Below are positions 2,603 through 25,404 of a stretch of DNA of 54,534 bases, piece by piece. How positions within the stretch are numbered: position 1 is the first letter of the stretch; each line of letters begins with the position of its first letter. The stretch is from assembly GCA_947624935.1 (NCBI GenBank), contig CANQML010000001.1, positions 1-54,534 on the forward strand, given 5' to 3'. The notes under the pieces are model-generated. The model saw nothing but the letters and a program-made list of their open reading frames with translations. It did no database searches and was not told the DNA's origin. Origin of the DNA: Candidatus Gastranaerophilales bacterium (GTDB taxonomy: Bacteria > Cyanobacteriota > Vampirovibrionia > Gastranaerophilales > Gastranaerophilaceae). Made by a program: the position numbers and the translations under genes.

Positions 2603-3163
2603 ATGCTTATGAAATTGAAAGTTAAGTTTAGGCTCTTTCAAATTTCTACTTATGCGTTAGTTTTTGCGGCAATTATCTTAATGGCTTTATTGACGGGCAA
2701 ATACATTGAAACAGTAGGGCTGTTTATAAGTTTTGTTGCGTTAAGATATACTTTTAGTAAAACATACCACTCTAACTCATTTTGGACGTGTATAGCTATA
2801 AGTATAATTATATTTATAATTGCAATACTATTTGTACCGAAAATCAATTTAAGCATACTTGCTTGTATTGTATTCGGTTTACTTATAGATTTTATTGCTT
2901 ATAAATATAAAGACTATCAAGATAATAAAGCCGAGCTAAAAGAACTAACAAAGCCTAAACCGTTTTCGGTAGATACTTGTACTGAAAATGAGCTTATAGC
3001 GCGTTGTAAAGAGTTAAGATTATCCGAAGAAAATACTAATCTTGCTGTTGAGTTTTTTATTAAAAAGACCAAGCCAAGTATAATAGCAAATAAGCTATGT
3101 ATAGATGAAAAATCCGTACAGCGAAAGAAAACACGCTTAAAAGCAAAACTTAATAACAAATAA
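2603..3163 (+). CDS. membrane-anchored protein with C-terminal HTH (sigma70 region-4 / LuxR-like)
   Basis: The N-terminal ~100 aa is hydrophobic (3-4 TM). The C-terminus NELIARCKELRLSEENTNLAVEFFIKKTKPSIIANKLCIDEKSVQRKKTRLKAKL looks like an HTH. Confidence 0.4.
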   Translation: MLMKLKVKFRLFQISTYALVFAAIILMALLTGKYIETVGLFISFVALRYTFSKTYHSNSFWTCIAISIIIFIIAILFVPKINLSILACIVFGLLIDFIAYKYKDYQDNKAELKELTKPKPFSVDTCTENELIARCKELRLSEENTNLAVEFFIKKTKPSIIANKLCIDEKSVQRKKTRLKAKLNNK

Positions 3164-3182
3164 AAAAATCAAGATTTTTATA

Positions 3183-3222
3183 AGATTGTACAGCTTTTGT
3201 CGGTGTACAGTCTTATTTTTTT
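3183..3222 (+). terminator. intrinsic terminator
   Basis: 10-bp stem AGATTGTACA / TGTACAGTCT (one G-T pair), 11-nt loop, followed by TATTTTTTT. Confidence 0.6.
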
Positions 3223-3233
3223 GTGTTATAAAC

Positions 3234-3256
3234 TCCTTGAAAAATATTTCAAGGAG
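3234..3256 (+). promoter_or_regulatory. hairpin sequestering the Shine-Dalgarno of the 3267 gene
   Basis: CTCCTTGAAA-ATA-TTTCAAGGAG. The 3' arm contains AAGGAG, 10 nt upstream of ATG 3267. Confidence 0.45.
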
Positions 3257-3266
3257 ATTTTTTATT

Positions 3267-3851
3267 ATGGCTTTTAATGGTATTGGTTATACACCGAGCA
3301 ACCCCTTTTCTGTACATAATTCCTACCCTATGTACTCTCAACCTATATCACCTATCCCTCAAATGCCTATGCCTATGCAACAGCCTCAAATGCAACCGCA
3401 AATGGCGCAAGCGCAAGCATATCAACAGCCTATGCAACAAATGCAACAAGCACAGCAAGCTCAACAGCAAATGCAACAGCCTATGCAAAATATACCGCCT
3501 AAAACTAATAAAGTGTTTGTATTGAATAAAGAGGCGGCGGGTAATGCATTAGCGGAATACAACAGCGATTATGTATATTTCGACCAAGACAACCCTATAC
3601 TTTACAATGTCATAACCGATATGCAAGGAAAGAAAACTATAACAATGTATAAAGTAGAGCCGTACAGCGAGCCTGTTGCCCCTACGCCCGTAGAAATTGA
3701 TACTACGCAATTTGTTACGCAAGACCAATTTAAAGCGTTAGAAGAACAAATAGCGGCGTTAAAAGCTACGCCTAAAACGGTTGATACTAAACTTGAAATT
3801 AAAAAGACAGAGCCTAAAAAAGAAGTTAAGGCTGAACCCAAAACTGAATAA
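3267..3851 (+). CDS. Q/M/P-rich low-complexity protein with globular C-terminal half
   Basis: The ATG follows AAGGAG. N-terminus PQMPMPMQQPQMQPQMAQAQAYQQPMQQMQQAQQAQQQMQQPMQ. The track start at 3186 is upstream of the RBS. Confidence 0.6.
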   Translation: MAFNGIGYTPSNPFSVHNSYPMYSQPISPIPQMPMPMQQPQMQPQMAQAQAYQQPMQQMQQAQQAQQQMQQPMQNIPPKTNKVFVLNKEAAGNALAEYNSDYVYFDQDNPILYNVITDMQGKKTITMYKVEPYSEPVAPTPVEIDTTQFVTQDQFKALEEQIAALKATPKTVDTKLEIKKTEPKKEVKAEPKTE

Positions 3852-3861
3852 GGAGTAAATT

Positions 3862-4239
3862 ATGGCTAACCCTTTGTTTAATGGTAATAGTGCCGCTATG
3901 AGCGGTATGGCAAATGTAGCACAACCAACAATGATAGGCAATATACCTGTCCCGCCGCAAGTAATGGAAACAATACAAAGCGTATTTAATATGATACAAA
4001 GCGGGGCAGATTTATATACTGTAATAAAGGCATTAAAAGAAAAAAATATTACTCCGCAAGCGGTAGAAAGAGGGCTTTATCTTGCAATGCCGCAACTGCG
4101 AAATGCAAAACAAAAACTAATGCAAATAGGCATAAATCCCAAAGAAGTTATAGGACAGCTTATGAAAGAAAATAATATTTCGGAAACTGAACTTAAATCT
4201 ATGATAACGGATTTTGCAAAACAATTTAAAAAGAAATGA
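3862..4239 (+). CDS. hypothetical protein
   Basis: AAGGAG RBS and tight spacing within the operon. Confidence 0.55.
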   Translation: MANPLFNGNSAAMSGMANVAQPTMIGNIPVPPQVMETIQSVFNMIQSGADLYTVIKALKEKNITPQAVERGLYLAMPQLRNAKQKLMQIGINPKEVIGQLMKENNISETELKSMITDFAKQFKKK

Positions 4240-4303
4240 TTTAAACGCACGATGACGTCTATGTGCGATTAAATAAATAAAATTTAAAGGAGATTTAAAA
4301 AAT

Positions 4304-5026
4304 ATGTATGTAGAGGGTGATTTGCCTTTGACCGTTGGTGGGGGCAATAACAACTCAAACGAGGGCTTTGGAGGCTGGTGGGGCATTATAGCCCTTATTG
4401 CCGTTGCGGCTATTTTCGGTAGAAACGGCGGGCTGTTTGGCAACAACAACCAAGGCGGTGTAACACAAGCTGACCTTTGTACTGCGTTAAATTTTAACAA
4501 TACCGATAGCGCAGTAAGGAGTGTGCAGAGTGGTCTTTGCGACGGTTTTTATGCCGTAAATACGGGATTGCTTAATGGCTTTGCTGGTGTACAGCAAACG
4601 CTTTGTCAAGGATTTGGTGGTGTAAATACCGCTATAACTACGCAGGGCTATCAGAACCAGCTAGCAACGCAGGGACTTTCGGCACAGCTTGCTTCCTGTT
4701 GCTGTGATACGCTTGCCGCAATAAAAGACGTGTCTTGCCAAGCGGCGGCAAATACAGGCGCAATTATAAGCGCAGGACAGGCTAATACGCAGAGAATAAT
4801 TGACTATCTGTGCAATGAAAAGATTTCCTCGCTCCAAGCAGAAAATTCGCTTCTTACGGCGCAGTTGTCGCAGAACTCGCAGACTAACACTATTATAAAT
4901 GCGTTACGTCCTACTCCTGTTCCCGCTTTTCCCGCAAGCAATCTTTACGGTTTTTACGGGCAGGGTTGCGGTAGTTGCAACACAAGCTGTGGGTGCAGTG
5001 GATACGGCTATGGTAATGCGTTTTAA
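4304..5026 (+). CDS. Cys/Gly/Asn/Gln-rich protein with one N-terminal TM segment
   Basis: Contains GGWWGIIALIAVAAIFG, then 15 Cys including CCC, and a C-terminal GCGSCNTSCGCSGYGYGNAF. No family recognised. Confidence 0.6.
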   Translation: MYVEGDLPLTVGGGNNNSNEGFGGWWGIIALIAVAAIFGRNGGLFGNNNQGGVTQADLCTALNFNNTDSAVRSVQSGLCDGFYAVNTGLLNGFAGVQQTLCQGFGGVNTAITTQGYQNQLATQGLSAQLASCCCDTLAAIKDVSCQAAANTGAIISAGQANTQRIIDYLCNEKISSLQAENSLLTAQLSQNSQTNTIINALRPTPVPAFPASNLYGFYGQGCGSCNTSCGCSGYGYGNAF

Positions 5027-5078
5027 TTAACGCAATAACTTAATAGGCAAGGAGATTTTATCTCGCCAAATAAAAAAT

Positions 5079-5104
5079 GGGGCGGGAAACCGCCCCTTAT
5101 AATT
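5079..5104 (+). terminator. GC stem with GAAA tetraloop (terminator candidate)
   Basis: GGGGCGG-GAAA-CCGCCCC followed by TTATAATTT. The T-tract is weak. Confidence 0.4.
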
Positions 5105-5118
5105 TAAGGAGAATTATT

Positions 5119-5571
5119 ATGACTTATAAAATGATACAAGTAACAAACTTGCCTACTGCGCCGTTTGGTGCGGTTGCAATCGGCGGTGTTGTTCCTCTCG
5201 GCGTTGTAACGCATAAAGTTGGTGGCTGTACTTGCAATCAACCTACTTTTACTGTAACGACAAGCGGTGCAAATACTGTTAGTATAAATAATACAGGGCT
5301 TTATAGAGTTACTTTTGATGCAAGCGTTGTTGCAACGGCGGCGGGTGATGTAACACTTAATCTTGTACAAAACGGAACTGTTATTGCAAGCGCAACTGAA
5401 ACCGCAGTTGCGGGTGAAACCGTTAATCTTTCGCTTACGCGCATTATAGCGGTTTACAACACTTATGGTGGAGTTGTGCCTACCGTTCCTGCTAATATTC
5501 AAATTACTAATACGGGTACTACTGCGCTCACAAGCGGTACTTCTAACCTTATTGTTGAAAGGATTTACTAA
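5119..5571 (+). CDS. BclA C-terminal-domain-like (C1q/TNF-like jelly-roll) protein, no collagen repeats
   Basis: The pattern NTGLYRVTFDASVVATAAGDVTLNLVQNGTVIASA...NLSLTRIIAV...GTSNLIVERI parallels the BclA CTD strand pattern (recalled, not searched). The ATG follows AAGGAG. Confidence 0.45.
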   Translation: MTYKMIQVTNLPTAPFGAVAIGGVVPLGVVTHKVGGCTCNQPTFTVTTSGANTVSINNTGLYRVTFDASVVATAAGDVTLNLVQNGTVIASATETAVAGETVNLSLTRIIAVYNTYGGVVPTVPANIQITNTGTTALTSGTSNLIVERIY

Positions 5572-5585
5572 TAGGGGGTGTAATT

Positions 5586-6266
5586 ATGAATGATTATGCA
5601 AGAAGTAGAATGAGAGGTATGCGCGACGGTGCGCGTGGTAGGCGCGGTATGCGTGATAGAATACGCGGCGAATATCGCGGCGGTATGGATTTCCGCGGTG
5701 ATTATGCTATGCGGGACGGCAGACAAGGCGTAAAAGGCACGGGTAGATATGGTAGAGGCGGTAGTATGTATCGTGATAGAGGTTATGACGACGATTACGA
5801 TTATGACGAAACCTATGAAGAGCCGTATGACTACGATTATGACTATGCAATGCGCGACGGTAGGCGTGGTGTAAGAGGCTCTCGCAGAGATAGAGGCTAT
5901 GACGATTACGACTACGCAGACGAAGAAGATATGCACTTATCTAAACGCGAAATGCAAGAGTGGAAACGCTCTATGAAAAACGCAGACGGTACAATGGGAG
6001 AACATTACAGACTTGAAGAAATTATGCCTATGGCTGAAAAAATGGGTGTAAAATTTGAAGAGTTTGACGAAAAAGAGTTTTGCCTTGCCGTTAATATGAT
6101 GTATTCCGATTATTGCAAAGCAATGAGAGAAAGCGTTGCGCTCCCGCCCGATAAAGAACTTATGACCTATATCAAGCTGGCAAAGGCTTGGTTAGAGGAC
6201 GAGGACGCTCCCGAAGGCTCGGAGAAGTTGGCTTTATATTATCGTTGCATAGTTGACGATATGTGA
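5586..6266 (+). CDS. charge-patterned RG-rich / DY-rich repeat protein with globular C-terminal domain
   Basis: Repeats of MRDG(R)xG(V)xG alternate with YDDDYDYDETYEEPYDYDYDY. The C-terminal ~110 aa is non-repetitive. Confidence 0.6.
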   Translation: MNDYARSRMRGMRDGARGRRGMRDRIRGEYRGGMDFRGDYAMRDGRQGVKGTGRYGRGGSMYRDRGYDDDYDYDETYEEPYDYDYDYAMRDGRRGVRGSRRDRGYDDYDYADEEDMHLSKREMQEWKRSMKNADGTMGEHYRLEEIMPMAEKMGVKFEEFDEKEFCLAVNMMYSDYCKAMRESVALPPDKELMTYIKLAKAWLEDEDAPEGSEKLALYYRCIVDDM

Positions 6267-6283
6267 GTAGGAGGGTAGATAGG

Positions 6284-6313
6284 CGGCAAGGGTGGAAAAG
6301 CTCTTGCCGTTTA
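6284..6313 (+). terminator. intrinsic terminator
   Basis: 9-bp stem CGGCAAGGG / CTCTTGCCG, then TTTAT. Confidence 0.5.
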
Positions 6314-6323
6314 TCGTATAATT

Positions 6324-6695
6324 ATGTCTGATTTTATGTATTACAATATAAACCCAAAAAAAGAAACTACTTTTGATTGCGTTTGTAGAGCAATAAGCCT
6401 TGCAAGTGGTTTGCCCTATCTCACTACTTCGCGGTTACTTGACCTTGTATCGGAACATACGGGATATGATAGAATAACGCTTAAATCTTATTCTTACCTA
6501 TTAGAAAAGATATTATTATACCCCGTATTCTATTGTGATTATGAGGAAACCGTTGACGAGGTTATAGAAAAATACCCGCATAATACATTACTTATACGCA
6601 TAGACGGACATTTATTGTGTGCCGTGGCTTCTGTAATAACTGATTTGTGGGATAGCCGTGATAGATTAGTTACTTGCTATTGGATAGCAAAATAA
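6324..6695 (+). CDS. putative papain-fold cysteine peptidase-like protein
   Basis: Candidate Cys-His-Asp arrangement (FDCVCRAISLA ... IDGHLLCAV ... DLWDS). Assigned by motif recall only. Confidence 0.3.
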   Translation: MSDFMYYNINPKKETTFDCVCRAISLASGLPYLTTSRLLDLVSEHTGYDRITLKSYSYLLEKILLYPVFYCDYEETVDEVIEKYPHNTLLIRIDGHLLCAVASVITDLWDSRDRLVTCYWIAK

Positions 6696-17881: not shown

Positions 17882-18166
17882 TTATTTATCATACTTAAAT
17901 GTGAAATAAGCAATAGCTTGTGGGCAATTATACATTTTCATATAATCTTTATCGTCATACCGCTTTGTGCCAACAAGATATGTATGCCAATCTATGCGCT
18001 TGTCATAGTCGTAATAGCTAAAAACTAAATCTTCTCTCGCAAAAGCGTTTTCGTGATAATCTACAAGGAAGTCTAAAAAATCTTCCATTGTATTAAATTC
18101 CTTTGATTGTGATAATGCCTCGTCCAATGACATCATTGACCCAGCGGGTCTGTAAATAATTTTCAT
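17882..18166 (-). CDS. hypothetical protein
   Basis: Last gene of the leftward operon. Confidence 0.5.
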   Translation of the reverse strand: MKIIYRPAGSMMSLDEALSQSKEFNTMEDFLDFLVDYHENAFAREDLVFSYYDYDKRIDWHTYLVGTKRYDDKDYMKMYNCPQAIAYFTFKYDK

Positions 18167-18182
18167 AATTTAATTCTCCTTA

Positions 18183-18860
18183 TTAACTTTTTTCTTCTAA
18201 AATCTTCCGCAACTTACTTGCAGTAACCTCACATTCTCGTTCTTGATTATCAAATTTTATTTTTATCTTAAACGGGTATTCAGAAGAAATTTTTGTAATG
18301 GTTGCCTTTCTTTCTTGAACAAGCATTACCAACAAATCATCTACACATATAACACGCTCACCAACGGAAAACTCTTTTGCTATTCGACTATCTCTTTCTG
18401 TATCGCATAACTTTTCCAAAAGTCGCGCAATCGGAGTTGTTCCACCGTAATGATTAGTTTCGTTTGCATAGTTTTCAAACACAACAAAGTCATCATCTGT
18501 AAGTTTAGACATAAAATCTTTAACGGCGGTACAAAACTGTTCTCTAACTTTGTCTTTTTTCTCGACCACCTCTTTAACCTTTTCCGCAACCGCATTTTTC
18601 AATTCATTACATACAGCTTCCGCCGACAAAAAGCAATTCAATCTGCACTCTACGTCGTCTTTTTCTCTAATTTCATTACCGTGATAATATATTTCTTCAT
18701 AATAGCGTTTAATATTTTTTTCTGTGCAATCAATAGAGCCTTTTGCTTTTCGTGCAAGGTCGTTTGAAAAATTTTCAACGTGGTCTATATAACCACCTGC
18801 GTTATATTCGTTGTAAAATGTTTTCCCGCAAATCGGGCATTGCATAATTGTATATTTCAT
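18183..18860 (-). CDS. hypothetical protein with N-terminal zinc-ribbon
   Basis: MQCPICGKTF. No family recognised. Confidence 0.5.
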   Translation of the reverse strand: MKYTIMQCPICGKTFYNEYNAGGYIDHVENFSNDLARKAKGSIDCTEKNIKRYYEEIYYHGNEIREKDDVECRLNCFLSAEAVCNELKNAVAEKVKEVVEKKDKVREQFCTAVKDFMSKLTDDDFVVFENYANETNHYGGTTPIARLLEKLCDTERDSRIAKEFSVGERVICVDDLLVMLVQERKATITKISSEYPFKIKIKFDNQERECEVTASKLRKILEEKS

Positions 18861-18862
18861 TT

Positions 18863-19294
18863 TTAATTCTCCTTTTCCTTTTCTATTTTTTCTTTTAGCT
18901 TAAAAACATATTGTCTTGATACACCAAAACGCTTTGCAATAGAACTCATAGTTTCGTTTGTAAAGCTCATTTGCCTAATCGCTTGAATTATATCGCTTGT
19001 TTGTTTACTTCGCGTTCTTGGGCGTTTTATACCGCTTAAAGCTATCTTTACAGTTGTTGCCGAGCATTTATATTTATTTTTCAAGTAATCAATATCTGTA
19101 AAGCCGTTAAGACAGTCCTCACGGATTTTATCAAAGTCAATTCTATGATTGCTTGCTTTGTGTATTCCGCTACCGCTAATCACTTGATTAACATAAACAT
19201 AAGGCACTCCTAAAAGAATAGCTATCTCTTTTGCCGTATGCGTTTTATAAAGCATTAAGATTGATTGCTTTTGCTCGTAAGTGATAAGTGCCAT
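18863..19294 (-). CDS. DNA-binding protein with two HTH motifs
   Basis: TAKEIAILLGVPYVYVNQVIS and TMSSIAKRFGVSRQYVFKLKEK. ATG 19294 (MALITY) is preferred. Confidence 0.5.
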   Translation of the reverse strand: MALITYEQKQSILMLYKTHTAKEIAILLGVPYVYVNQVISGSGIHKASNHRIDFDKIREDCLNGFTDIDYLKNKYKCSATTVKIALSGIKRPRTRSKQTSDIIQAIRQMSFTNETMSSIAKRFGVSRQYVFKLKEKIEKEKEN

Positions 19295-19893
19295 TATTTC
19301 TCTCTCCTTGTAAGCGTTCCGCATAGCGCACAATAAATTTGACCTGTCCGAATTTCGTCGCCATTTTTTATCTGTTTAGCGCAACTTTTTACCCAATTAT
19401 ATGCTAATGGGTTTTGTGCGGCTTCGGTTATCTTCTCTTTCGCTATTCTTTTGTTTTCTTCCGTCAATTCGGGGAGCAATTTCCAACCAAGCTCACTTAT
19501 ACCTTGTTTACAATCATTTTCCGTTGGGAACACATAACACTCCTTATGTATTGCTCCGATAATAGTATGTATTTCCCCTATTTGTATTAGCTTGTATGAA
19601 ATAGAATACTTATTTATGTTTACTTTTGTAATTTTACAAGGTACAGGTAAATAGCCTAAATAGCTATAACTCATTCTGCCTATCGCGTAAACAGTATCTC
19701 CAACTTTGTATTTTGGGACAAGTCCACCGCGCTCCGATTTTAGCCAAGTTGTAATACAAGCAATACAGTTTTTGTATTCTTGACATCTTTTATATCCAAC
19801 CATACACAAATCGTCAATATTTTCCCCGCCTCTTTTTATCACCCAAGCCAGCTCGTTATCTGTTAAAGTCATAAGATATTCTCTTCCTGTCAT
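19294..19893 (-). CDS. hypothetical protein
   Basis: GAGGTG RBS before ATG 19893 (MTGREY). Confidence 0.5.
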   Translation of the reverse strand: MTGREYLMTLTDNELAWVIKRGGENIDDLCMVGYKRCQEYKNCIACITTWLKSERGGLVPKYKVGDTVYAIGRMSYSYLGYLPVPCKITKVNINKYSISYKLIQIGEIHTIIGAIHKECYVFPTENDCKQGISELGWKLLPELTEENKRIAKEKITEAAQNPLAYNWVKSCAKQIKNGDEIRTGQIYCALCGTLTRREK

Positions 19894-19901
19894 ATTACAC
19901 C

Positions 19902-20330
19902 TCAATTCTGTTTTAATTCCGCAATAACATTTTCAATATTCCACTCTTTGCGAAGTTTCAAATTCCGTTTTGCTTTGTTTGCTTTATCTTTGCCGTGAAA
20001 TTGAAAATCCCTAACGAACGGAACACCGATAGTCAAAAGCAGGTCCTCTGCCGTCCAAAGTGCGCCCTCAATGCACTTCAAATCGTCCTCGCATAATGCT
20101 CTGTCTTTATATTCATACTCTCCTTCTAAAAATCGAACGCCTAAATCTCCGTCTATGGAAATGCCTTCCTCGTCAACGGATATAACGGCATAAACTTTCG
20201 TATAATACCCCTCTAAAATGCGAATAGAATAAATTGCACAGTCATAATCTCTATCGCACTTCTCCCAGCCTGTTTTTGTTAAATAATCAAAAATTTTATT
20301 ATCAAATGCTGTTCTATCGCTGAATTTCAT
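19902..20330 (-). CDS. hypothetical protein
   Basis: Operon context only. Confidence 0.5.
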   Translation of the reverse strand: MKFSDRTAFDNKIFDYLTKTGWEKCDRDYDCAIYSIRILEGYYTKVYAVISVDEEGISIDGDLGVRFLEGEYEYKDRALCEDDLKCIEGALWTAEDLLLTIGVPFVRDFQFHGKDKANKAKRNLKLRKEWNIENVIAELKQN

Positions 20331-20344
20331 ATTTATATCCTCAC

Positions 20345-20662
20345 TTATAGATATTTCTGTAATCTTGTGCGGAAATCAATCGGCTCATTGTCGTATTTGA
20401 CATATATATGCTCGTCATTGTGTAAACCGTCAATGCTAACCCAATTAAAACCTTTTAATTCCGTTACAAGCCAATGTGCCTCTTTCATAATCGCTCCGAG
20501 CGCAACGGCAGGGACAACCCAGCCGTCATATTGATTGCCCATAAAATCAATACATTTTTCTCTCTTGATATTCTTCTTGAAAAAAGCGTATGCTTTGCTT
20601 TTCGGCTCAATATCCATACCAAAAGTTATTCCGTCAAAATATTCTGCGTGTAATTCTTTCAT
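20345..20662 (-). CDS. hypothetical protein
   Basis: ATGA overlap with the upstream gene. Confidence 0.5.
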   Translation of the reverse strand: MKELHAEYFDGITFGMDIEPKSKAYAFFKKNIKREKCIDFMGNQYDGWVVPAVALGAIMKEAHWLVTELKGFNWVSIDGLHNDEHIYVKYDNEPIDFRTRLQKYL

Positions 20663-20838
20663 ACATTATGTTCCTTTACTGTCTTTTCAATAAATTCAAG
20701 TGTTTCCTTAAAAGCAACTTCTCGCCCAGCAAAATAATCGTCATACTTTTTATATTTGCCGTAAACTGAATTATTATGTGCTTTGCTAATCGATATAAGT
20801 AGCCAATCTTTAATTTCCTTTACTATATCATTTTCCAT
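20659..20838 (-). CDS. small protein (59 aa), not in ORF track
   Basis: MENDIVKEIKDWLLISISKAHNNSVYGKYKKYDDYFAGREVAFKETLEFIEKTVKEHNV*. Confidence 0.45.
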   Translation of the reverse strand: MENDIVKEIKDWLLISISKAHNNSVYGKYKKYDDYFAGREVAFKETLEFIEKTVKEHNV

Positions 20839-20840
20839 AA

Positions 20841-21416
20841 TTACCTATTCTCCTTTAATATTCTTGATACAGTAGAGGGTGATATTCCTAACTCTACCGC
20901 TATTTCTTTACCCATTTTACCTTGTGAAGATAAATCTAAAACTCTATCTGATAAGGCTTTGCTTTTGTTTGGTCTGCCGAGAATTATGCCCTCGTCCTTT
21001 TTCGCGGCAAGAGCTTGCCTTGTACGGTCTGCTATCAAGTCGCGCTCGAATTGTGCAAATGCACTCATAATATGGAATACAAGCGCAGACATAGCGTCCA
21101 TTTTATTATCACCGCCTACTGTTAGGTTTTCCTTTAAGAATATAACCTTTACTTTTTTATCTCTAACAAGCAAGTTAGTTGTATCTATCAAGTCTTGTAC
21201 ACTTCTTGCCATACGGCTCATACTTTCAAAATACACCTCATCACCCGCTTGCAAGACTTCAAGCAAGTTATTAAATTCTTCTCTTATACAAGCCTTTTTA
21301 GTTCCGCTTATTTTTTCCTCAAACAGTCTGTCAAGCTGATAATCTTTCAAAACATATTCTTGCCTTGTGTATTCCTGTTTGTCGGCTACGGACACTCTTA
21401 TATAGCCGTATCTCAT
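20841..21416 (-). CDS. small serine recombinase (resolvase/invertase family) with C-terminal HTH
   Basis: MRYGYIRVS (catalytic Ser), ...SRMARS..., ...FAQFERDLIADRTRQAL..., and C-terminal GKEIAVELGISPSTVSRIL. ATGA overlap with the upstream gene. Confidence 0.9.
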   Translation of the reverse strand: MRYGYIRVSVADKQEYTRQEYVLKDYQLDRLFEEKISGTKKACIREEFNNLLEVLQAGDEVYFESMSRMARSVQDLIDTTNLLVRDKKVKVIFLKENLTVGGDNKMDAMSALVFHIMSAFAQFERDLIADRTRQALAAKKDEGIILGRPNKSKALSDRVLDLSSQGKMGKEIAVELGISPSTVSRILKENR

Positions 21417-21883
21417 TTTAATATCTCCCATACTTTATTTGTTTTGAAATCTATTAAATAATCCCTGTTATTTTCGGCTGTTCTTGTTTTTGCAAGTTTT
21501 TTGTTTGCCACATTATGCCACCAAAAATAATCGCCATAACCTTGCCACCGTAACGATATAAAATCATTAGTCAATCGGTCAAAAAAGTTAAACTCCCAAA
21601 ACAAATCATTTGCCCATTTTTCATATCTTGCAAAACCCATAAACATTTTCTTTTGAGTTGGCAAAACATAAAATTCTTCTTTTGATTTACCTTTCCCCCT
21701 TGTGCCGTAGAGTTTAAGCTCATTAAGATTGGGCAGTATAATACCATAAACATTATTAAGTGTTTTTTGTAAATCAACATAGTTATACCAGCAATACAAA
21801 TCAATTTCTTTTTCTGTTTGCCCCATTACTTTTGCAGAATATCTGCCAAGTAGTTTGCGTACATATATAAGTTCATATCTCAT
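21413..21883 (-). CDS. hypothetical Trp/Tyr-rich protein
   Basis: Operon context only. Confidence 0.5.
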   Translation of the reverse strand: MRYELIYVRKLLGRYSAKVMGQTEKEIDLYCWYNYVDLQKTLNNVYGIILPNLNELKLYGTRGKGKSKEEFYVLPTQKKMFMGFARYEKWANDLFWEFNFFDRLTNDFISLRWQGYGDYFWWHNVANKKLAKTRTAENNRDYLIDFKTNKVWEILK

Positions 21884-21888
21884 AGTTA

Positions 21889-22068
21889 TTACTCCTTGTC
21901 CTCTTTTTTCAAGATTTCTCGCGTTGTAGTTTGTAAAAGTTGTCTCCCTCGATAATACTCATTGTCGCAATATGAACTTTTGCCGTCATTTTTGTGCCTT
22001 ATGTCATTATCAAGCATACCTGTTATTTGAAAAATATTTAACAATCGCTCTAATAATTCTTTTTCCAT
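21889..22068 (-). CDS. small hypothetical protein (59 aa)
   Basis: GAGGA RBS before ATG 22068 (MEKELL). Confidence 0.4.
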   Translation of the reverse strand: MEKELLERLLNIFQITGMLDNDIRHKNDGKSSYCDNEYYRGRQLLQTTTREILKKEDKE

Positions 22069-22070
22069 AG

Positions 22071-22310
22071 TTAATAATCCTCGTCGTTCCTCTCTTTTTT
22101 TATTTTTTGTCCGCAAAAGGGACAATAACTAAACGGTACGCTTACTGGTGTATCACCCATTGCAGATATAAGAGGTGGATATGCATAAAAGTCTATCGCC
22201 AATCCGCCCCGTGTTCCTTGAAATCTGTGATAGCCACTATGGGCAGAACAAATTTGTTTTATATCTTCCTCTATATCTTCTTCTGTGTAATAAGTGTAAT
22301 CATCTATCAT
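22071..22310 (-). CDS. hypothetical protein with C-terminal zinc-ribbon-like CPFCG
   Basis: AAGGAG lies 8 nt upstream of ATG 22310 (MIDDYTYY). Confidence 0.5.
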   Translation of the reverse strand: MIDDYTYYTEEDIEEDIKQICSAHSGYHRFQGTRGGLAIDFYAYPPLISAMGDTPVSVPFSYCPFCGQKIKKERNDEDY

Positions 22311-22323
22311 AATCTTTACTCCT

Positions 22324-23367
22324 TTATTTATCATATTTTCCTGTTATACAGTTAAGAATTTCTCTATCGCTAATATTCGCGCATTGACAACGGAAAAGTG
22401 TTGTTGAGTTCGGCAATTTAATATAGCTATCGCCCTTGCCTAAAAGTTCCGCACCCTTGCCGCAGTCAATAACGTTCATTGAGTGCCTTGCGTTTGCCGT
22501 AGTCAAGCAAACCTTTGTAGGCAGATTATATTTAATCAAGCCTGTTACAACGCTTGCTCGCGGGTCTTGCGTTGCCACAATAAGGTGTATGCCCGCCGCT
22601 CTACCCTTTTGTGCTATCCTCACGATATATTCCTCTACTTCGTTTTTAGAGGTCATCATAAGGTCGGCTAACTCGTCTATAACAACCACAATTCTATTGC
22701 CGTCATACTTCTTTAACCCTTTTGCTTGCATTTCACCATACCGCCGTTCCATTTCGTCAACGGCGATAGAAAGCCACTCTAACGCCTCGCTATTATCTTT
22801 TGCAACCTTATATATGCGTTTGTGTATATCTTGCTCATACAAGCCAAATTCCGCGCCTTGTTTAGGGTCTATTAAAATTAAACTCGCAGTTGAAAAACAT
22901 AACAGCTCCATAATAAGACTGTTTAGCAAACAAGATTTACCACTTCCTGTTGACCCCGCTATAAGTAAGTGTGCCGCTTCGTCCATATTTGTAACAATAA
23001 AATCGAAGTTACCTTTGCCGAAAGAAATATAGCCTTTTTGCCTTGCCGCTTGTTCGCCGTCTTTATCTTCGGCAATAGCTTTTTTAATAGCGTGTGCGCA
23101 ATCACCGCACGATATAAATTGCCTGTCGCAGTTACGCGATAATCGGAAAGTGCCGCCCTCTAACGGCTCATAGTTATAGCCAGCAAAAACGCGCATTTCC
23201 TTTATCACTCTATTAAACGCAGAAAGGGATACGGCAGAAATGATTTTAAACTCAAAATTTCCCGCTTGCGGTGAAAAGTAACAGCGTAATAATTCAACTT
23301 GTATTCCCGCCCTTGCAAAATAGTTAGTCAAATTTACGCTCATTTGCTCTATTGTTATATCGCCCAT
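22324..23367 (-). CDS. FtsK/SpoIIIE-family DNA translocase ATPase (motor domain only, no TM)
   Basis: Walker A GSTGSGKS, Walker B VVVIDELADLM, and IVATQDPR. Confidence 0.85.
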   Translation of the reverse strand: MGDITIEQMSVNLTNYFARAGIQVELLRCYFSPQAGNFEFKIISAVSLSAFNRVIKEMRVFAGYNYEPLEGGTFRLSRNCDRQFISCGDCAHAIKKAIAEDKDGEQAARQKGYISFGKGNFDFIVTNMDEAAHLLIAGSTGSGKSCLLNSLIMELLCFSTASLILIDPKQGAEFGLYEQDIHKRIYKVAKDNSEALEWLSIAVDEMERRYGEMQAKGLKKYDGNRIVVVIDELADLMMTSKNEVEEYIVRIAQKGRAAGIHLIVATQDPRASVVTGLIKYNLPTKVCLTTANARHSMNVIDCGKGAELLGKGDSYIKLPNSTTLFRCQCANISDREILNCITGKYDK

Positions 23368-23369
23368 AG

Positions 23370-23726
23370 TTATGCCCTCTTCCCCGTTGCGCTATCTTTA
23401 TTAGCTTGTTCTATAAGCTCGGCAAGCCTTGCACTCGCCCTTTTGCCCCAATCGCTGTTAAGCCCTTTGGCAAGAATATCAATATGTGCAGAAACATATT
23501 CCTTGCAAGCGGAAAAGGTTACAAATCCGCCCGCACCTACTCCCGCGCCTGTGCTTGCTTCTGTTGCTTGCCAATAGCCGTGCTGTTTCCTATAAAAGAC
23601 AACAATTATATTGCCGTCTTTATCTTTATGTTCCATCCTATGCCCCATAACAGGTCTTGCATAAAAAGTATCTGTATTTTCCAATTCATCAAATGTGTGC
23701 ATACACTCATAATATAACTTATTCAT
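23370..23726 (-). CDS. hypothetical protein
   Basis: Operon context only. Confidence 0.5.
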   Translation of the reverse strand: MNKLYYECMHTFDELENTDTFYARPVMGHRMEHKDKDGNIIVVFYRKQHGYWQATEASTGAGVGAGGFVTFSACKEYVSAHIDILAKGLNSDWGKRASARLAELIEQANKDSATGKRA

Positions 23727-23738
23727 AGTTATGCCCTC

Positions 23739-24053
23739 TCAATAAATAATACAACCCTCTATATAGTTTGATTTTATGCCTTTGTCTTTATCGCAGAATA
23801 TCAACGGCTCATCGACAATCTTTATAAAAACATTGTTTGCCTTGCCTACTCCCCAAAGTAATCGCTTGTCCGTCATAAAGGTTTTGCCGTGTTCTGTTTT
23901 CCAAACAAAATGTTTATGTGTTACCTTTACGCAGTCCACCTTGCTTGCAAAAACAGTTAGCCCGCTTCCGCTATTACAAACATAGCAATACTTTTTGTCG
24001 GTGTTTATCCACTCATAGTTGCGTTTAAAGTCGTTCCAAATTCTAATATACAC
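23739..24053 (-). CDS. hypothetical protein (GTG start)
   Basis: AAGGGGG RBS. Confidence 0.45.
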   Translation of the reverse strand: MYIRIWNDFKRNYEWINTDKKYCYVCNSGSGLTVFASKVDCVKVTHKHFVWKTEHGKTFMTDKRLLWGVGKANNVFIKIVDEPLIFCDKDKGIKSNYIEGCIIY

Positions 24054-24065
24054 AGTTATACCCCC

Positions 24066-24287
24066 TTAAATAAATTGCCTTATATACTGTTTATACGGTG
24101 TTTTTGTGCCTGTTGCTTTTACTTCGTCATAAGTCATCAACGCTTTTATTCTGTCAAGCTCGCGCTGTTCCTTTTCGTCTTTGGGCGGAATATAGTTCCC
24201 CAAACCCGCAAAAGCGTTGTGTCGTCTTGCCGTCATTATCTTAAAATCTTTAAATGAAATAGTTAATCTTTGATTATAATTTAACAT
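24066..24287 (-). CDS. hypothetical protein
   Basis: AAGGGGG RBS. Confidence 0.5.
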   Translation of the reverse strand: MLNYNQRLTISFKDFKIMTARRHNAFAGLGNYIPPKDEKEQRELDRIKALMTYDEVKATGTKTPYKQYIRQFI

Positions 24288-24298
24288 AATATACCCCC

Positions 24299-24508
24299 TT
24301 AACCTCTGTAATCAACAATTCTATGTTTGCCGTTTTCTTCTCTTTCAATATCTATTTTTTCGGTAAAAAACTGTGATATAAACCTATGCGCCATCGCATT
24401 TGCGCCGTTGTAATATTCAAGTTCAGCTTGCTCGCCGTGCGTAATTGCTTCAAAGTAAACCTCATCAAGCCATTTTGCAACACGTTCAAAAAGTTCCTGT
24501 TGTTCCAT
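24299..24508 (-). CDS. hypothetical protein
   Basis: Preceded by the repeated AAATAATTTATAAAGAGG module. Confidence 0.5.
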   Translation of the reverse strand: MEQQELFERVAKWLDEVYFEAITHGEQAELEYYNGANAMAHRFISQFFTEKIDIEREENGKHRIVDYRG

Positions 24509-24611
24509 AATTAAACCTCTTTATAAATTATTTATTTAAGCCGTAACGGCTCATTTTTATTGTTGTGATAAAATATACTACCTCGCCCATAAAAGGGCGC
24601 AGAATTGAAAT

Positions 24612-24869
24612 TTAGGCGGTTAGAATTGATTTCAAGCTATCGAAAAAATCAAACAGCGATTTTAATGTTCGTTTGTCGTATGTCGCCGTGCTTGCGTCAT
24701 TCGGACTTTTTGATTTTGCACAATAAATAAGCGAGTGCGGCGCAGGAATATCGAGCATATCACAAAGAATATAAAAATCAAGTTGTTCTAATTCTTCCTT
24801 GCCTTTTGCCCATTGTTTAGCCGCTTCCAATACGGCTTGATTTCTCTTTTCGCATTGCTCAATAGTCAT
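24612..24869 (-). CDS. hypothetical protein
   Basis: Preceded by the repeated AAATAATTTATAAAGAGG module. Confidence 0.5.
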   Translation of the reverse strand: MTIEQCEKRNQAVLEAAKQWAKGKEELEQLDFYILCDMLDIPAPHSLIYCAKSKSPNDASTATYDKRTLKSLFDFFDSLKSILTA

Positions 24870-24957
24870 AAAATACCTCTTTATAAATTATTTTTCCGCT
24901 ATGCGGTGGGGCGGGTAGTGTTTTAGGAGTTTCCCGCTATCGCTCCGAAAAGTGCAG

Positions 24958-25101
24958 TTATGCTCTCCTTAAATATAAATTTTTAACTTTTTCAAACTCT
25001 TCTTGACTTATCGCAGAAAGGGGCAGACCCCCGAACCACAAACGGCAGAAAGACAGAAAGCCACATAAAGTTTTAATATTTGTATGAATATAGAATTGCA
25101 T
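24958..25101 (-). CDS. small hypothetical protein (47 aa)
   Basis: Internal ATG (MQFYIH). The RBS is weak. Confidence 0.3.
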   Translation of the reverse strand: MQFYIHTNIKTLCGFLSFCRLWFGGLPLSAISQEEFEKVKNLYLRRA

Positions 25102-25117
25102 AATTATACACCGCCAT

Positions 25118-25303
25118 TTAAAACCAAACAAAAACCTTTTTACCCGCCTTTTCAAGCTCTTCAACGGTATAAATTTCCCCGTTGATTTTTACGCACTGTT
25201 GCCCCCATTCATCCGAATAAACGCGTCGGTCAATATGCGCGTTGCCTTGCGTGATTGTCGCAAACAGCGGATAACCTGCGCAAAATTCTTTTTCAAGTGT
25301 CAT
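25118..25303 (-). CDS. small hypothetical protein (61 aa)
   Basis: AAGGAG before ATG 25303 (MTLEKEF). Confidence 0.45.
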   Translation of the reverse strand: MTLEKEFCAGYPLFATITQGNAHIDRRVYSDEWGQQCVKINGEIYTVEELEKAGKKVFVWF

Positions 25304-25404
25304 TTTGTTAAATCTCCTTTGCCTGTCATCATCAGTACGGGGCGGCAAACCCCCGCAGACGGGCAGAAAAAGCCCGTTTCGACTGTTTAATTAAATCACC
25401 CCCC

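Follow-up and report, generated by a model that had tools for sequence, protein, structure and literature searches.

Five consecutive open reading frames in a phage region of a Candidatus Gastranaerophilales assembly raise the question of whether a virus encoding proteins reminiscent of spore coats remodels the spore or surface of its host, decorates its own virion, or acts elsewhere in the infected cell. The locus lies in a window of 54,534 nucleotides (the whole stretch analyzed, contig CANQML010000001.1), and the initial annotation had described it as a five-gene set of oddly composed, surface-type products, a description with which both the ORF coordinates and the residue fractions agree. 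In all likelihood, the five genes (g1–g5) are not spore genes but a self-contained accessory module passed horizontally from one tailed phage to another.

Gene content and composition

The cassette fills positions 3267–6266 of the plus strand with the following genes:

3267..3851, plus strand: g1, 194 aa, matching phrog_21718 (4.7e-8)
3862..4239, plus strand: g2, 125 aa, a small ORF in its slot, of which phrog_22984 is a short form
4304..5026, plus strand: g3, 240 aa, the core protein, matching phrog_16490 (8.7e-20) and phrog_9288 (3.4e-8)
5119..5571, plus strand: g4, 150 aa, a predicted free-standing jelly roll (AlphaFold2, Foldseek, PF18573 in relatives)
5586..6266, plus strand: g5, a low-complexity N-terminal half followed by DUF7841 (Pfam PF25223)

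Each gene carries an AAGGAG/GGAG-type ribosome-binding site 7–11 nt 5' of its ATG. Searches returned 1866 homologues of g1, 1862 of g3 and 34 of g4, numbers swollen by closely related IMG/VR contigs that reduce to 55, 63 and 34 representatives after de-duplication; the g1 family was enlarged with jackhmmer searches of a small database, and its low-complexity sequence can recruit false members. The five ORFs are real genes, as shown by these homologue numbers, the Pfam DUF7841 match of g5 and the conserved gene order. Low-entropy windows of 20 residues cover 26–48% of g1, g3, g4 and g5 versus 7% of the rest of the proteome, an excess beyond chance, and the GC content of these four genes (0.40–0.48; g2, 0.35) compares with 0.28–0.37 in neighboring genes. 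The higher GC and the flanking hairpins are moron-like features. PADLOC gave no match for any of the five products, their PHROG matches are all of "unknown function", PDB sequence searches yielded nothing significant (weak BclA matches for g4 only), and no signal peptide was found in g1, g2, g4 or g5. The upstream genes, previously called lysis-like, do encode membrane proteins, including an AgrB-like product (2603–3163), but none was identified as a holin or an endolysin.

Hairpins and promoters

Terminators had been placed at 3183, 5079 and 6284, and stable hairpins occur at all three positions, with a fourth just before g1:

3181..3217, plus strand: terminator-like hairpin closing the membrane-protein genes upstream (RNAfold -16.1 kcal/mol, UUUUUUU tail)
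3233..3256, plus strand: 10-bp hairpin whose 3' arm holds the AAGGAG ribosome-binding site of g1 (terminator scan, -12.9 kcal/mol)
5079..5096, strand unassigned: GC-rich 7-bp hairpin between g3 and g4 (reported on both strands by the terminator scan, -17.1 kcal/mol)
6275..6319, plus strand: strong hairpin closing the cassette (RNAfold -25.8 kcal/mol)

The hairpin at 3233–3256 could be a terminator or a translational gate for g1, while that at 5079–5096, which has the better U-run on the minus strand, is a possible partial terminator on either strand. The closing hairpin overlaps a promoter-like site of the next gene (6293–6322, promoter scan). The same scan detected no sigma-70 consensus promoter ahead of g1 in the window, and located perfect sigma-70 promoters for the early genes at 6699 and 7207. 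Across 69 non-redundant regions upstream of the cassette, promoter-like sites were not enriched (mean score 9.30 versus 9.02 in controls).

The jelly-roll protein g4

The fourth product, rich in Thr, Val, Gly and Ala, had been likened to the BclA C-terminal domain, a C1q/TNF-like fold, without collagen repeats, and structure prediction bears this out. Its AlphaFold2 model (pLDDT 86.8, pTM 0.83) is all-beta with ten strands, and the top Foldseek match in the PDB is 1wck, the BclA C-terminal domain (E 1e-6, TM 0.67/0.73), followed by 7r1m (ExsFA), C1q/TNF proteins, among them EDA-A1, and PRD1 P5. Matches in BFVD comprise small gut-phage proteins, two of which bear the name "BclA protein", as well as tail-fiber, minor-tail, C1q-domain and fibritin-like proteins. 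Pfam PF18573 (BclA_C) is matched by 20 of 35 family members, the window protein itself falling below Pfam and NCBIfam thresholds, and BclA is its sole, weak match in the PDB sequence search. Comparison by hhalign with phrog_20016-type neighbors gave a probability of 95% (E 2.6e-8). Nearly all family members are free-standing proteins of 130–155 aa without collagen repeats, and g4 itself has none. On the strength of the model, g4 is classed as a BclA-C/ExsF/C1q-TNF-like jelly roll.

Among solved proteins, the BclA C-terminal domain of the Bacillus anthracis exosporium (PF18573; PDB 1wck, 2r6q, 3twi) shares the fold and a weak but specific sequence similarity; g4 differs in lacking the collagen-like Gly-X-X stalk and the N-terminal exosporium-targeting region, and in being phage-encoded rather than part of a sporulation locus. 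The closest solved match in architecture, as judged from the model, is ExsFA/BxpB, the exosporium anchor of Bacillus cereus (PDB 7r1m, 7r5i, 9h3d), a free-standing jelly roll of ~150–170 aa without a stalk (TM 0.65–0.68), although it has no detectable sequence similarity to g4 and functions in the spore basal layer. ExsFA docks short N-terminal peptides of partner proteins (title of entry 9h3d), and this analogy suggests that g4 may bind g5 or g3 in a similar manner. The same fold is used by viruses in fiber knobs such as PRD1 P5 (PDB 1yq5) and the phage tail-fiber and minor-tail proteins of BFVD, where it forms the C-terminal domain of a long fiber polypeptide; g4 is instead a separate 150-aa protein whose upstream neighbor is a coiled-coil protein.

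The core protein g3

Compared with 60 other window proteins, in which Cys averages 1.8%, g3 is rich in this residue (5.0%) and also contains 14.2% Gly and 10.4% Asn. From the N- to the C-terminus, it comprises an acidic N-terminus, a Gly-rich hydrophobic segment, a long helical stalk with conserved Cys, a Pro-rich linker and a Cys/Gly tail:

4364..4420, plus strand: hydrophobic segment GFGGWWGIIALIAVAAIFG, residues 21–39, membrane-anchor or fusion-peptide-like (Kyte-Doolittle 19-residue mean 1.84)
4697..4705, plus strand: CCC motif, residues 132–134
4967..5023, plus strand: Cys/Gly/Tyr-rich C-terminal tail GCGSCNTSCGCSGYGYGNAF

The hydrophobic segment, which is flanked by Gly, is the only one in the protein. 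Across 57 representatives, the 25 residues preceding it contain 2.4 Asp/Glu versus 0.4 Lys/Arg, and the 15 residues following it contain 0.6 Lys/Arg versus 0.3 Asp/Glu; the Kyte-Doolittle mean exceeds 1.6 in only 44% of family representatives, and the corresponding "anchor" in the version from Edwardsiella phage eiAU is a Gly-zipper-like segment of low hydrophobicity. Alignment A2 shows G103, F104 and CCC132–134 as invariant, and the CCC motif is present in 57 of 63 de-duplicated members and also in the crAss-like phage cr125_1 and in eiAU. Tails of the CGCGC type are found in Bacillota-type (A2) and crAss-like homologues and are absent from eiAU. The AlphaFold2 model is all-helical and of low confidence (pLDDT 43).

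i-spanins of the lambda Rz type and class I viral fusion subunits resemble g3, in which a hydrophobic or Gly-rich segment near the N-terminus is combined with a long helical stalk and conserved Cys, and the "spike protein/glycoprotein" label on crAss-like homologues in GenBank reflects this resemblance. Nevertheless, no profile match to either group was obtained for g3, the cassette contains no partner lipoprotein gene, g3 also occurs in viruses assigned to archaea and in phages that infect monoderm hosts, and the eiAU genome already carries an Rz-type gene at another position.

The proteins g1, g2 and g5 and the neighboring gene d1

g1 (Gln 14.9%, Pro 11.3%, Met 6.7%) begins with a low-complexity region of ~90 aa rich in Gln, Pro, Met and Tyr, after which come a short globular domain rich in beta structure, a coiled coil and a Lys/Glu-rich tail. 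It lies 5' of g3, with only the small g2 ORF between them, in 124 loci, and its relative in locus L019 matches phrog_21718 at 3e-39. g2 is a small helical protein enriched in Met, Gln and Pro that has no Pfam or PDB match; its slot is filled by a small ORF in 81 loci, and its family averages 15.6% Gln and 10.4% Met (7–8% Met in the g5 families; background 2.3%).

g5 is dominated by Arg (13.3%), Asp (13.3%), Tyr (9.7%) and Met (8.8%), and divides into two parts followed downstream by d1:

5586..5909, plus strand: N-terminal half of g5, Arg/Gly/Asp/Tyr/Met-rich and of low complexity, with two copies of Y-A-M-R-D-G-R-x-G-V-[KR]-G
5910..6242, plus strand: C-terminal DUF7841 domain of g5, residues 109–219 (Pfam PF25223, 5.2e-20; 72 bits, cut-off 25)
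6324..6695, plus strand: d1, 123 aa, with a Cys...His...Asp pattern (phrog_3754, 1.8e-10)

The motif GR[FYQR][AG][PV][KT]G is present in 5 of 34 DUF7841-type and 11 of 22 phrog_28802-type fifth genes and in none of 2132 background ORFs, and is thus common to two types of fifth gene that are unrelated to each other. Neither Pfam nor the PDB gave a match for d1, which immediately follows or precedes the cassette in 82 loci and is possibly a small papain-like peptidase, a putative label drawn from its residue pattern.

The strong, conserved low-complexity regions of complementary chemistry in g1 and both forms of the fifth gene have a further possible reading, that Tyr-Arg contacts bring the Tyr/Gln/Pro-rich part of g1 and the Arg/Gly/Tyr/Asp-rich part of g5 together in a membrane-tethered cytoplasmic scaffold or condensate organizing phage replication or assembly. 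Replication and recombination genes do adjoin the cassette in the window, as they do in C. perfringens phages and one Bacteroides phage. This reading is nonetheless improbable, as composition is its only basis, the jelly roll and the conserved Cys are left without a role, and the low-complexity regions vary greatly in length and are much shorter in the enterobacterial four-gene version described below.

Synteny and mobility

About 130 loci in phages or prophages, a number subject to the same swelling by related contigs, share the arrangement (small HTH)-g1-g2-g3-g4-g5-(peptidase-like gene), in which the two flanking genes are often present. The description of the five genes as one unit is sustained by this gene order. 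Over 139 loci, the pattern d1-sig-g1-g3-g4-g5L was counted 44 times, (sig)-g1-g2-g3-g4-g5L-mp 31 times and the window type, g1-g2-g3-g4-g5D-d1, 10 times. A GerE/sigma-r4-type HTH gene stands 5' of the cassette in 88 loci, and a serine or tyrosine integrase ends 250–500 nt upstream of g1 in 17; in the window phage, no integrase like those flanking the cassette elsewhere was found. In many loci, g4 is absent or swapped for another beta-rich protein. The site of the cassette varies: it lies beside attP/integrase, after lysis or tail-fiber genes, or within the head module, as in L019 (between MuF-like and scaffold/capsid genes), and in L043 it separates endolysin and holin-like genes. Synteny was also seen in L002 and L003, and gene maps were drawn for seven loci.

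Unrelated small accessory genes traveling together by chance would account for internal hairpins such as that at 5079, which could split separate transcription units, for the non-homologous genes filling the fourth and fifth positions in different phages, and for the homing endonuclease genes inserted within the cassette in some loci. Such a chance association is very improbable, given that the order is kept across families of 20–45% protein identity and very different genomic positions, that the pairing of g3 with DUF7841 persists in crAss-like phages, and that short intergenic distances on one strand indicate an operon.

Distribution among viruses and the spore hypothesis

The initial annotation had proposed that the phage might remodel the host spore or cell surface, and had suggested comparing sporulation loci with phages as the genomic context of homologues. 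Several observations would suit proteins that imitate the spore coat or exosporium and are produced by the mother cell during sporulation: the fold of g4 is common to the BclA C-terminal domain and ExsFA, and its relatives match BclA_C; the soluble partners lack signal peptides, like coat proteins; the small upstream regulator belongs to the GerE/LuxR HTH family; and the majority of carriers are phages of gut Clostridia. The Gln-rich, Cys-rich and Tyr/Asp-rich cassette proteins also recall GerQ, ExsY/CdeC and CotC, a likeness of composition only. In Lachnospira intestinalis, moreover, the cassette sits at the edge of a chromosomal prophage and abuts a truncated SigG/SigF-like sporulation sigma gene. 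The interruption of sporulation genes by prophages is a known phenomenon (PMC4191935, PMC5595907, PMC3442830), and this neighborhood bears on the integration site, not on cassette function.

All homologue contexts examined, however, are phage or prophage, and none is a sporulation or exosporium locus. The likeness to coat proteins holds at the level of composition for g1, g3 and g5, but these proteins show no Pfam, NCBIfam or PDB link to coat families; reading of the sequence also revealed no BclA-type N-terminal targeting sequence, collagen repeats are missing, and no integrase of the cassette-flanking kind was found in the window phage. Relatives of g3 are spread over viruses of three bacterial phyla (Bacillota, Bacteroidota and Pseudomonadota) and over viruses assigned to Methanomassiliicoccales archaea, including virulent T1-like, 9g-like, PY100 and eiAU phages and Vibrio phages; the phages among them, many strictly virulent, infect hosts that include Escherichia, Salmonella, Yersinia, Edwardsiella, Vibrio and Bacteroides. 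g3 and the DUF7841 protein co-occur in crAss-like Bacteroides phages, and in cr125_1 the two genes adjoin, with the CCC motif and Cys/Gly tail as in the window. Because g3 relatives occur in viruses of non-spore-forming hosts, a spore-specific role is unlikely; the proposal that these proteins mimic spore coats is extremely improbable, and we regard the cassette with considerable confidence as a mobile module that is conserved among phages and has no specific tie to spores.

A related four-gene set, phrog_9288-9157-8329-7239, occurs in enterobacterial siphophages (eiAU P858_08–P858_11; PY100 ORF29–32; Tlsvirus Bas08 bas08_0030–0027). Its first gene is a true g3 homologue (window g3 versus phrog_9288, 3.4e-8; profile A2 versus the eiAU protein, 1e-13) and shares the CCC and LCQGF-GVN motifs with it, and the companions are similar in kind to those of the cassette: one is helical and rich in Arg, His and Tyr, one is beta-rich with a Pro/Gln tail, and one is small and helical. 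The set differs from the cassette in gene order and in having no BclA_C-like gene, and its companions show no detectable homology to g1, g2 or g5.

Virion or membrane of the infected cell

The main rival to a membrane complex, though itself unlikely, is a virion-borne accessory structure, in line with the unusual capsid or tail decorations that the initial annotation had offered as an alternative. In this extra fiber, decoration or ejection aid, a trimeric coiled-coil shaft made of g3 would carry g4 at its distal end as a jelly-roll knob; the fusion-peptide-like N-terminus of g3 would enter the host membrane at DNA delivery, with g1, g2 and g5 as assembly chaperones or linkers. The structural matches of g4 to the PRD1 vertex protein P5 and to tail-fiber, minor-tail, C1q-domain and fibritin-like proteins are consistent with this, as are the GenBank labels "spike protein/glycoprotein" and "outer capsid protein/viral fiber" on crAss-like g3 homologues. 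Tail-fiber genes precede the cassette in eiAU and Bas08, where the lateral tail fiber and the cassette form an island amid replication genes; the window cassette lies less than 3 kb from tail fibers and that of L019 inside the head module. Missing signal peptides in g1, g2, g4 and g5 would fit cytoplasmic assembly, and a virion-intrinsic function would account for the spread over bacterial phyla and archaea. Against a virion role, an N-proximal hydrophobic segment like WWGIIALIAVAAIFG should be drawn into the membrane by the insertion machinery of the cell that produces it, and membrane-captured g3 would be unavailable for virion assembly. Placement among early or recombination genes or beside attP in other phages, and in PY100 as a separate operon of opposite orientation, is odd for stoichiometric virion parts; the cassette is accessory, present in only some phages of a group, and no member has a PHROG structural annotation.

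The preferred, still tentative, explanation is a membrane-anchored stalk-and-knob complex in the infected cell. That g1–g5 form a complex as such is inferred from synteny. In the cell that makes it, g3 would insert into the cytoplasmic membrane, exposing a short acidic N-terminus on the outer side and leaving the stalk in the cytoplasm, and g4, presumably trimeric like all solved members of its fold, would cap or dock on the stalk to give an anchor-stalk-knob assembly. A layout like that of BclA or a TNF-family ligand would thereby be divided over two genes; the type II membrane ligands of the TNF superfamily (EDA-A1, PDB 1rj7) combine anchor, stalk and trimeric jelly roll, but the analogy is architectural only, these ligands being eukaryotic single chains of opposite predicted topology without sequence relation to g3 or g4. 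Met/Gln-rich g2 and low-complexity g1 and g5 may act as holdases or adaptors, and the fifth-gene motif GR-x-[AG]-[PV]-[KT]-G is a candidate docking peptide by analogy to the binding of N-terminal peptides by ExsF. Several points weigh against the membrane complex: the g3 model is poor (pLDDT 43), the charge bias behind the proposed topology is weak, the putative anchor is of low hydrophobicity in eiAU and exceeds a Kyte-Doolittle mean of 1.6 in only 44% of representatives, many loci lack g4 or have another protein in its stead, so that its pairing with g3 is not obligatory, and both the predominance of the viral TNF/C1q-like fold as the distal knob of virion fibers and the position of the cassette directly after tail-fiber genes in several phages favor a virion role.

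Expression of the module would be under phage control, middle or late in infection, rather than from a host-type early promoter. Its site of action would be the cytoplasmic membrane, the sole envelope layer common to all hosts, and a gatekeeping role there, although doubtful at present, would most plausibly consist in the control of membrane passage, either by exclusion of superinfecting DNA or by the timing of lysis.

The cassette and its phage

The five-gene cassette singled out in the initial annotation is confirmed, and its ORFs are present as described there, each with a good ribosome-binding site. Together with the ORF directly 3' of them, they are:

3267-3851, plus strand, g1
3862-4239, plus strand, g2
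4304-5026, plus strand, g3, stalk protein with a CCC motif
5119-5571, plus strand, g4, jelly roll
5586-6266, plus strand, g5, DUF7841 protein
6324-6695, d1, ORF directly 3' of the cassette

The unusual compositions reported for these proteins are likewise borne out and contrast strongly with the 60 other proteins of the phage. Low-entropy windows make up 26-48% of g1, g3, g4 and g5 against a background of 7%, and g3, which has a single hydrophobic segment (residues 21-39), contains 5.0% Cys against 1.8%. The three hairpins associated with the cassette are stable (-16.1, -17.1 and -25.8 kcal/mol), the one at 5079 having its better U-run on the opposite strand. The GC content is 0.40-0.48 for g1 and g3-g5 and 0.35 for g2, compared with 0.28-0.37 in the flanks on both sides.

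The first 77 nt of the window are repeated exactly as its last 77 nt (1-77 and 54458-54534), which makes the window a complete circular assembly of ~54.46 kb. The structural module it encodes is of the siphovirus type, and its gene order runs from the fibres through a set of small genes and the cassette to the early genes (Holliday-junction resolvase, ERF and SSB). The main landmarks are:

30971, large terminase
38799, portal
41525, major capsid protein
46583, tape measure
50784-53303, fibre protein, 839 aa
~53320 to 149, second tail-fibre ORF, spanning the window ends at the circular junction
1343-1858, 1859-2464 and 2603-3163, three membrane-protein genes among the small genes
6293, 6699 and 7207, consensus sigma-70-type promoters serving the early genes

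The gene at 2603-3163 encodes a 186-aa protein in which an N-terminal AgrB-type membrane domain (Pfam PF04647, 4.8e-12; 46 bits, cut-off 23) is fused to a C-terminal region resembling a sigma-region-4/LuxR HTH. This fusion gene occupies the slot taken in other loci by a small HTH gene, and the same fusion occurs in the homologue locus L003. A perfect sigma-70 consensus promoter at 810-838 (TTGACA-17-TATAAT) is followed by a 13-bp hairpin at 895-923 and by the first gene at 966; the hairpin is a possible attenuator or antitermination site for the membrane-protein genes, perhaps governing read-through into the cassette. Elsewhere in the window, a minus-strand gene block (17882-26049) encodes, among others, a small HTH-bearing serine resolvase (20841-21431, minus strand; Pfam Resolvase, 3e-31) as well as an FtsK/SpoIIIE-like ATPase (22324-23367, minus strand; phrog_1358, 5e-60). 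No integrase of the kinds that flank the cassette elsewhere was found in the window, and a DNA similarity search of the region against GenBank phages gave no match.

Conservation of the module

On contigs that encode g4 homologues, the gene is preceded by a g3 homologue and followed by a DUF7841 gene, and the surroundings are those of phages. When loci with the g3 family were fetched (80 from IMG/VR and 48 from GTDB genomes, plus GenBank phages) and their ORFs labelled by iterative searches, a recurrent order emerged: (small HTH)-g1-g2-g3-g4-g5, followed either by d1 or by the gene for a small HExxH metallopeptidase-like protein; one large group has d1 ahead of the cassette instead. Many of the IMG/VR loci are closely related, and de-duplication left 63 representatives of g3, 55 of g1 and 34 of g4. 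Searches with g1, whose family includes low-complexity sequence, and with g3 yielded ~1,860 protein clusters each, some of hundreds to 1,490 member sequences. Phage contigs bearing the module number in the thousands, and most of them come from animal guts. HNH-type homing endonuclease genes were observed between g4 and the fifth gene of L009 (8546-9358, judged from its sequence) and after g4 in Butyrivibrio phage Ceridwen (L089, 7139-7933; phrog_374, 2.9e-65).

The jelly-roll protein g4

The initial annotation guessed that g4 adopts a jelly roll like that of the BclA C-terminal domain (CTD) or C1q, and AlphaFold2 modelling followed by Foldseek searching proved this guess correct. The model (pLDDT 86.8, pTM 0.83) is all-beta with ten strands, and its top match is the BclA-CTD (1wck; E 1.1e-6, TM 0.67/0.73), followed by ExsFA and then by EDA, C1q, 4-1BBL and other TNF/C1q proteins, as well as the PRD1 spike protein P5. 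There were 124 PDB matches at E<=1e-3, and the best 50 of these 124 are almost all BclA, ExsFA or C1q/TNF-type chains. From this fold family we infer that g4 would assemble as a homotrimer. At the sequence level, 20 of the 35 aligned sequences of the g4 family match Pfam BclA_C (PF18573; best 1.1e-6), and the family profile retrieves BclA chains alone from the PDB, weakly (E 0.08-0.25). In the Pfam scan, g4 itself did not match PF18573 at E<=0.1; against NCBIfam GXX_rpt_CTERM, the Gly-X-X-repeat C-terminal domain, it scored 18.8 bits (cut-off 50).

The absence of collagen repeats also holds, as g4 is a 150-aa protein whose jelly roll begins at residue 2, with no Gly-X-X stalk. The 34 g4 homologues can be aligned over their whole length, and an exhaustive profile search returned 464 clusters of the family at E<=1e-3; since nearly all of the best 150 of these 464 are 130-155 aa long, the stalkless, free-standing form is the norm. 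Among predicted viral structures, the best matches are uncharacterised proteins of 130-150 aa from uncultured gut phages, two of them named 'BclA protein', while longer matches include tail fibres, minor tail proteins and proteins with C1q domains or collagen repeats.

The composition of the five products had led to the proposal that the phage may remodel the host spore or cell surface. This reading accounts for the fold of g4 and for the compositions of the other cassette proteins, but it leaves the distribution of the families unexplained and is very unlikely. The exosporium glycoprotein BclA bears a collagen-like stalk N-terminal to its jelly roll, whereas g4 does not, making ExsFA the closer analogue by architecture. 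Moreover, a BclA-type protein would be expected in a sporulation or exosporium locus, whereas all contexts examined for homologues were phage or prophage.

Companion genes

The product of g5 belongs to DUF7841 (PF25223; 72.2 bits against a gathering score of 25.2, residues 109-219), a family also found in L002, L003 and crAss-like phages. Across loci, the fifth position holds either a DUF7841 protein that, like g5 of the window, has an Arg/Gly/Asp/Tyr-rich region, or a helical protein of the phrog_28802 type with a similar low-complexity region in its middle. Because hhalign gave a probability of only 1.4% for their relatedness, the two kinds are treated as non-homologous, with a short motif alone in common: GR-x-[AG]-[PV]-[KT]-G occurs in 5/34 DUF7841-type and 11/22 phrog_28802-type representatives, and in 0/2132 other ORFs. 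The g5 peptide YAMRDGRQGVKGTGRY is a candidate binding partner of a g4 trimer. Methionine is abundant in the g2 family (10.4%, with 15.6% Gln) and in the g5 families (7-8%), against a background of 2.3%.

At the fourth position, phrog_20016 proteins are homologous to g4 of the window (hhalign probability 95%, E 2.6e-8), and in some loci the gene is absent or swapped for a different beta-rich protein. Replacements of this kind, 125-145 aa long, were seen in C. perfringens phages (L008, 5445-5822), an Enterocloster prophage (L125, 6819-7256) and the crAss-like phage cr125_1 (L006, 5570-5998); none of the three had a PHROG or Pfam match, and the C. perfringens protein has a Cys-rich N-terminus (MTCNRRCNCCNRR).

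The neighbouring gene d1 adjoins the cassette, before or after it, in 82 loci. Its 123-aa product (phrog_3754) has a conserved Cys...His...Asp pattern that is suggestive of a small papain-like peptidase. A promoter-like -10 box ends 1 nt 5' of the annotated d1 ATG, so that either the gene may start further downstream or its mRNA may be leaderless.

Pfam and NCBIfam scans of g1-g5 returned DUF7841 and sub-threshold matches only. The PADLOC defence-system models gave no match to g1-g5 at E<=0.1, their matches being confined to d1 (weak) and the upstream AgrB-like protein. Sequence and profile searches of the PDB with g1, g3, g5, d1 and the phrog_20016-type relatives of g4 produced nothing significant; matches to syntaxin, YadA and Atg8 (E>0.01) were dismissed as coiled-coil or chance similarities. 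The PHROGs of the cassette families (21718, 22984, 16490/9288, 20016, 28802 and 3754) are all annotated 'unknown function'.

The stalk protein g3 and its host range

Owing to its N-proximal hydrophobic segment, g3 should be targeted to the producing cell's membrane. Family-wide, this segment is preceded by acidic residues and followed by slightly basic ones, a charge bias that weakly favours an N-out/C-in orientation in which the stalk would lie in the cytoplasm. AlphaFold2 modelling from 36 sequences gave a g3 model of low confidence (pLDDT 43).

Relatives of g3 extend well beyond gut Clostridia. The crAss-like phage cr125_1 encodes a full-length homologue that shares with g3 the Gly-rich hydrophobic segment, the ASCCCD motif, the Pro-rich linker and the Cys/Gly/Tyr tail; its gene directly adjoins that of a DUF7841 protein with a C-terminal Arg/Gly/Tyr/Asp-rich region, and both adjoin genes for a holin, a LysB-like protein and an endolysin. 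Each cassette gene of cr125_1 (L006, 4656-6604) contains 1-4 in-frame TAG codons and ends in TAA, consistent with TAG reassignment in late genes. None of the cultured crAss phages for which proteomics exist carries the crAss-like homologue. In addition, g3 of the window matches phrog_9288, the first gene of an enterobacterial four-gene set carried by Edwardsiella phage eiAU, Yersinia phage PY100, T1-like Tlsvirus (Bas08) and 9g-like phages; these phages are virulent, and their hosts do not sporulate. In the eiAU genome paper, the homologue appears only as a hypothetical protein. Vibrio phages, too, encode relatives, as do Caudoviricetes assigned to Methanomassiliicoccales; among the latter, tblastn with the crAss-like homologue picked up BK063680.1/NC_134205.1 (vir335, 2e-15) and BK063676.1/NC_092586.1 (vir215, 9e-9). 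Most of the GTDB matches are contigs of phage size that were binned with gut Clostridia and Bacilli.

Two known classes of protein were considered for g3 and rejected. An i-spanin combines an N-terminal anchor with a periplasmic coiled coil, and is found in phages of diderm hosts together with the gene for a partner outer-membrane lipoprotein. The anchor and helical stalk are present in g3, but the lipoprotein partner is missing, the family extends to phages of monoderm Clostridia and to viruses assigned to archaea, and eiAU has a separate Rz gene. A RiPP precursor resembling microcin B17 was considered in view of the Cys/Gly/Ser tail and the upstream AgrB-like gene; it was rejected because the tail is variable, modification enzymes are absent and only the window and L003 have the AgrB-like gene alongside the cassette.

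Genomic position and expression

The cassette occupies a variety of genomic positions. In 17 loci it directly follows an integrase gene (serine or tyrosine type), on the far side of the presumed attP, and in Lachnospira intestinalis it stands at the extreme edge of a chromosomal prophage. In the commonest group of IMG/VR loci it separates a MuF-like minor head gene from the scaffold/capsid genes, and in C. perfringens phages it is flanked by an anti-repressor gene and Gam/Erf. Lysis genes are its neighbours in cr125_1, L002, L043 (between endolysin and holin-like genes) and Ceridwen (3' of the endolysin). In the Lachnospira case (L110, 4209-4964; strain CLA-AA-H89B, 486-kb contig), the prophage abuts a SigG/SigF-like sporulation sigma gene that lacks about its first 100 codons, the frame opening at ...AIPMIIGEIKRYLRD right after a stop codon. 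The prophage therefore apparently lies within the sigma gene, with the cassette first inside the junction at the one prophage end covered.

This mobility, together with the raised GC content and the flanking hairpins (3181-3217 and 6275-6319), fits an autonomous accessory unit, or 'moron', reportedly defined by Hendrix and colleagues; the cassette has its own terminator, a distinct base composition and a variable position. No sigma-70 consensus promoter precedes g1 in the window, nor is one enriched across 69 non-redundant upstream regions, and a gene for a GerE/sigma-region-4-type HTH protein lies upstream of the cassette in 88 loci. These observations suggest that cassette expression may be under phage control, possibly from a phage-specific promoter served by the HTH protein.

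Possible function and significance

The cytoplasmic membrane is the only cell structure common to all of these hosts, and the virion is the sole other shared denominator. As g1, g2, g4 and g5 have no signal peptide, their products must be cytoplasmic, on the side where the g3 stalk is proposed to lie, and this arrangement, with g3 directed to the membrane, favours an anchored stalk-and-cap complex. In such a complex, g3 would form a membrane-anchored stalk on the cytoplasmic side of the producing cell, g4 a trimeric jelly-roll cap or hub upon it, and the Met/Gln-rich and low-complexity proteins their partners, the whole being made under phage control and acting at the membrane. The main rival is an accessory fibre or ejection aid borne on the virion, which would agree with the normal use of the jelly-roll fold by viruses and with the frequent proximity of the cassette to tail-fibre genes; the predicted membrane targeting of g3 argues instead for the stalk-and-cap complex.

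What that complex would do can be guessed from position only: it might keep out incoming DNA or control when lysis occurs. Membrane proteins with such roles (Sie2009, Ltp, Imm, RI/LysB types) are, to our knowledge, defined by phenotype and share no sequence family, and the resemblance of the cassette to them is positional, namely its adjacency to attP and integrase or to lysis genes. A broader and rather improbable proposal is that g3 and its partners constitute an unrecognised membrane-active apparatus of tailed viruses infecting Bacillota, Bacteroidota, Pseudomonadota and methanogenic archaea, which would act at the cytoplasmic membrane as a general device for entry, exit or exclusion. Its parts would comprise a fusion-peptide-like N-terminus, a Cys-bearing coiled-coil stalk with the invariant CCC, Met/Gln-rich holdases, low-complexity adaptors and, in Clostridial phages, a BclA/TNF-like trimeric knob.

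As far as the literature search shows, this widespread multi-gene phage module is undescribed: no paper mentioning DUF7841 was found, and publications on BclA, C1q or TNF-like proteins in phages yielded nothing on the cassette. The window provides a clean and complete example of it, and its core protein has relatives in phages that are well studied in the laboratory (T1-like BASEL phages, PY100 and C. perfringens phages); all the families are nevertheless catalogued under 'unknown function'. Should the module turn out to be an ordinary virion decoration or exclusion system, its value would be lesser but useful, with some six PHROGs gaining an annotation; if its parts truly cooperate, it would represent a widespread, unnamed piece of phage biology. 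The circulation of the exosporium BclA/ExsF fold in phages as a free-standing small protein also bears on the origin of spore-surface proteins.
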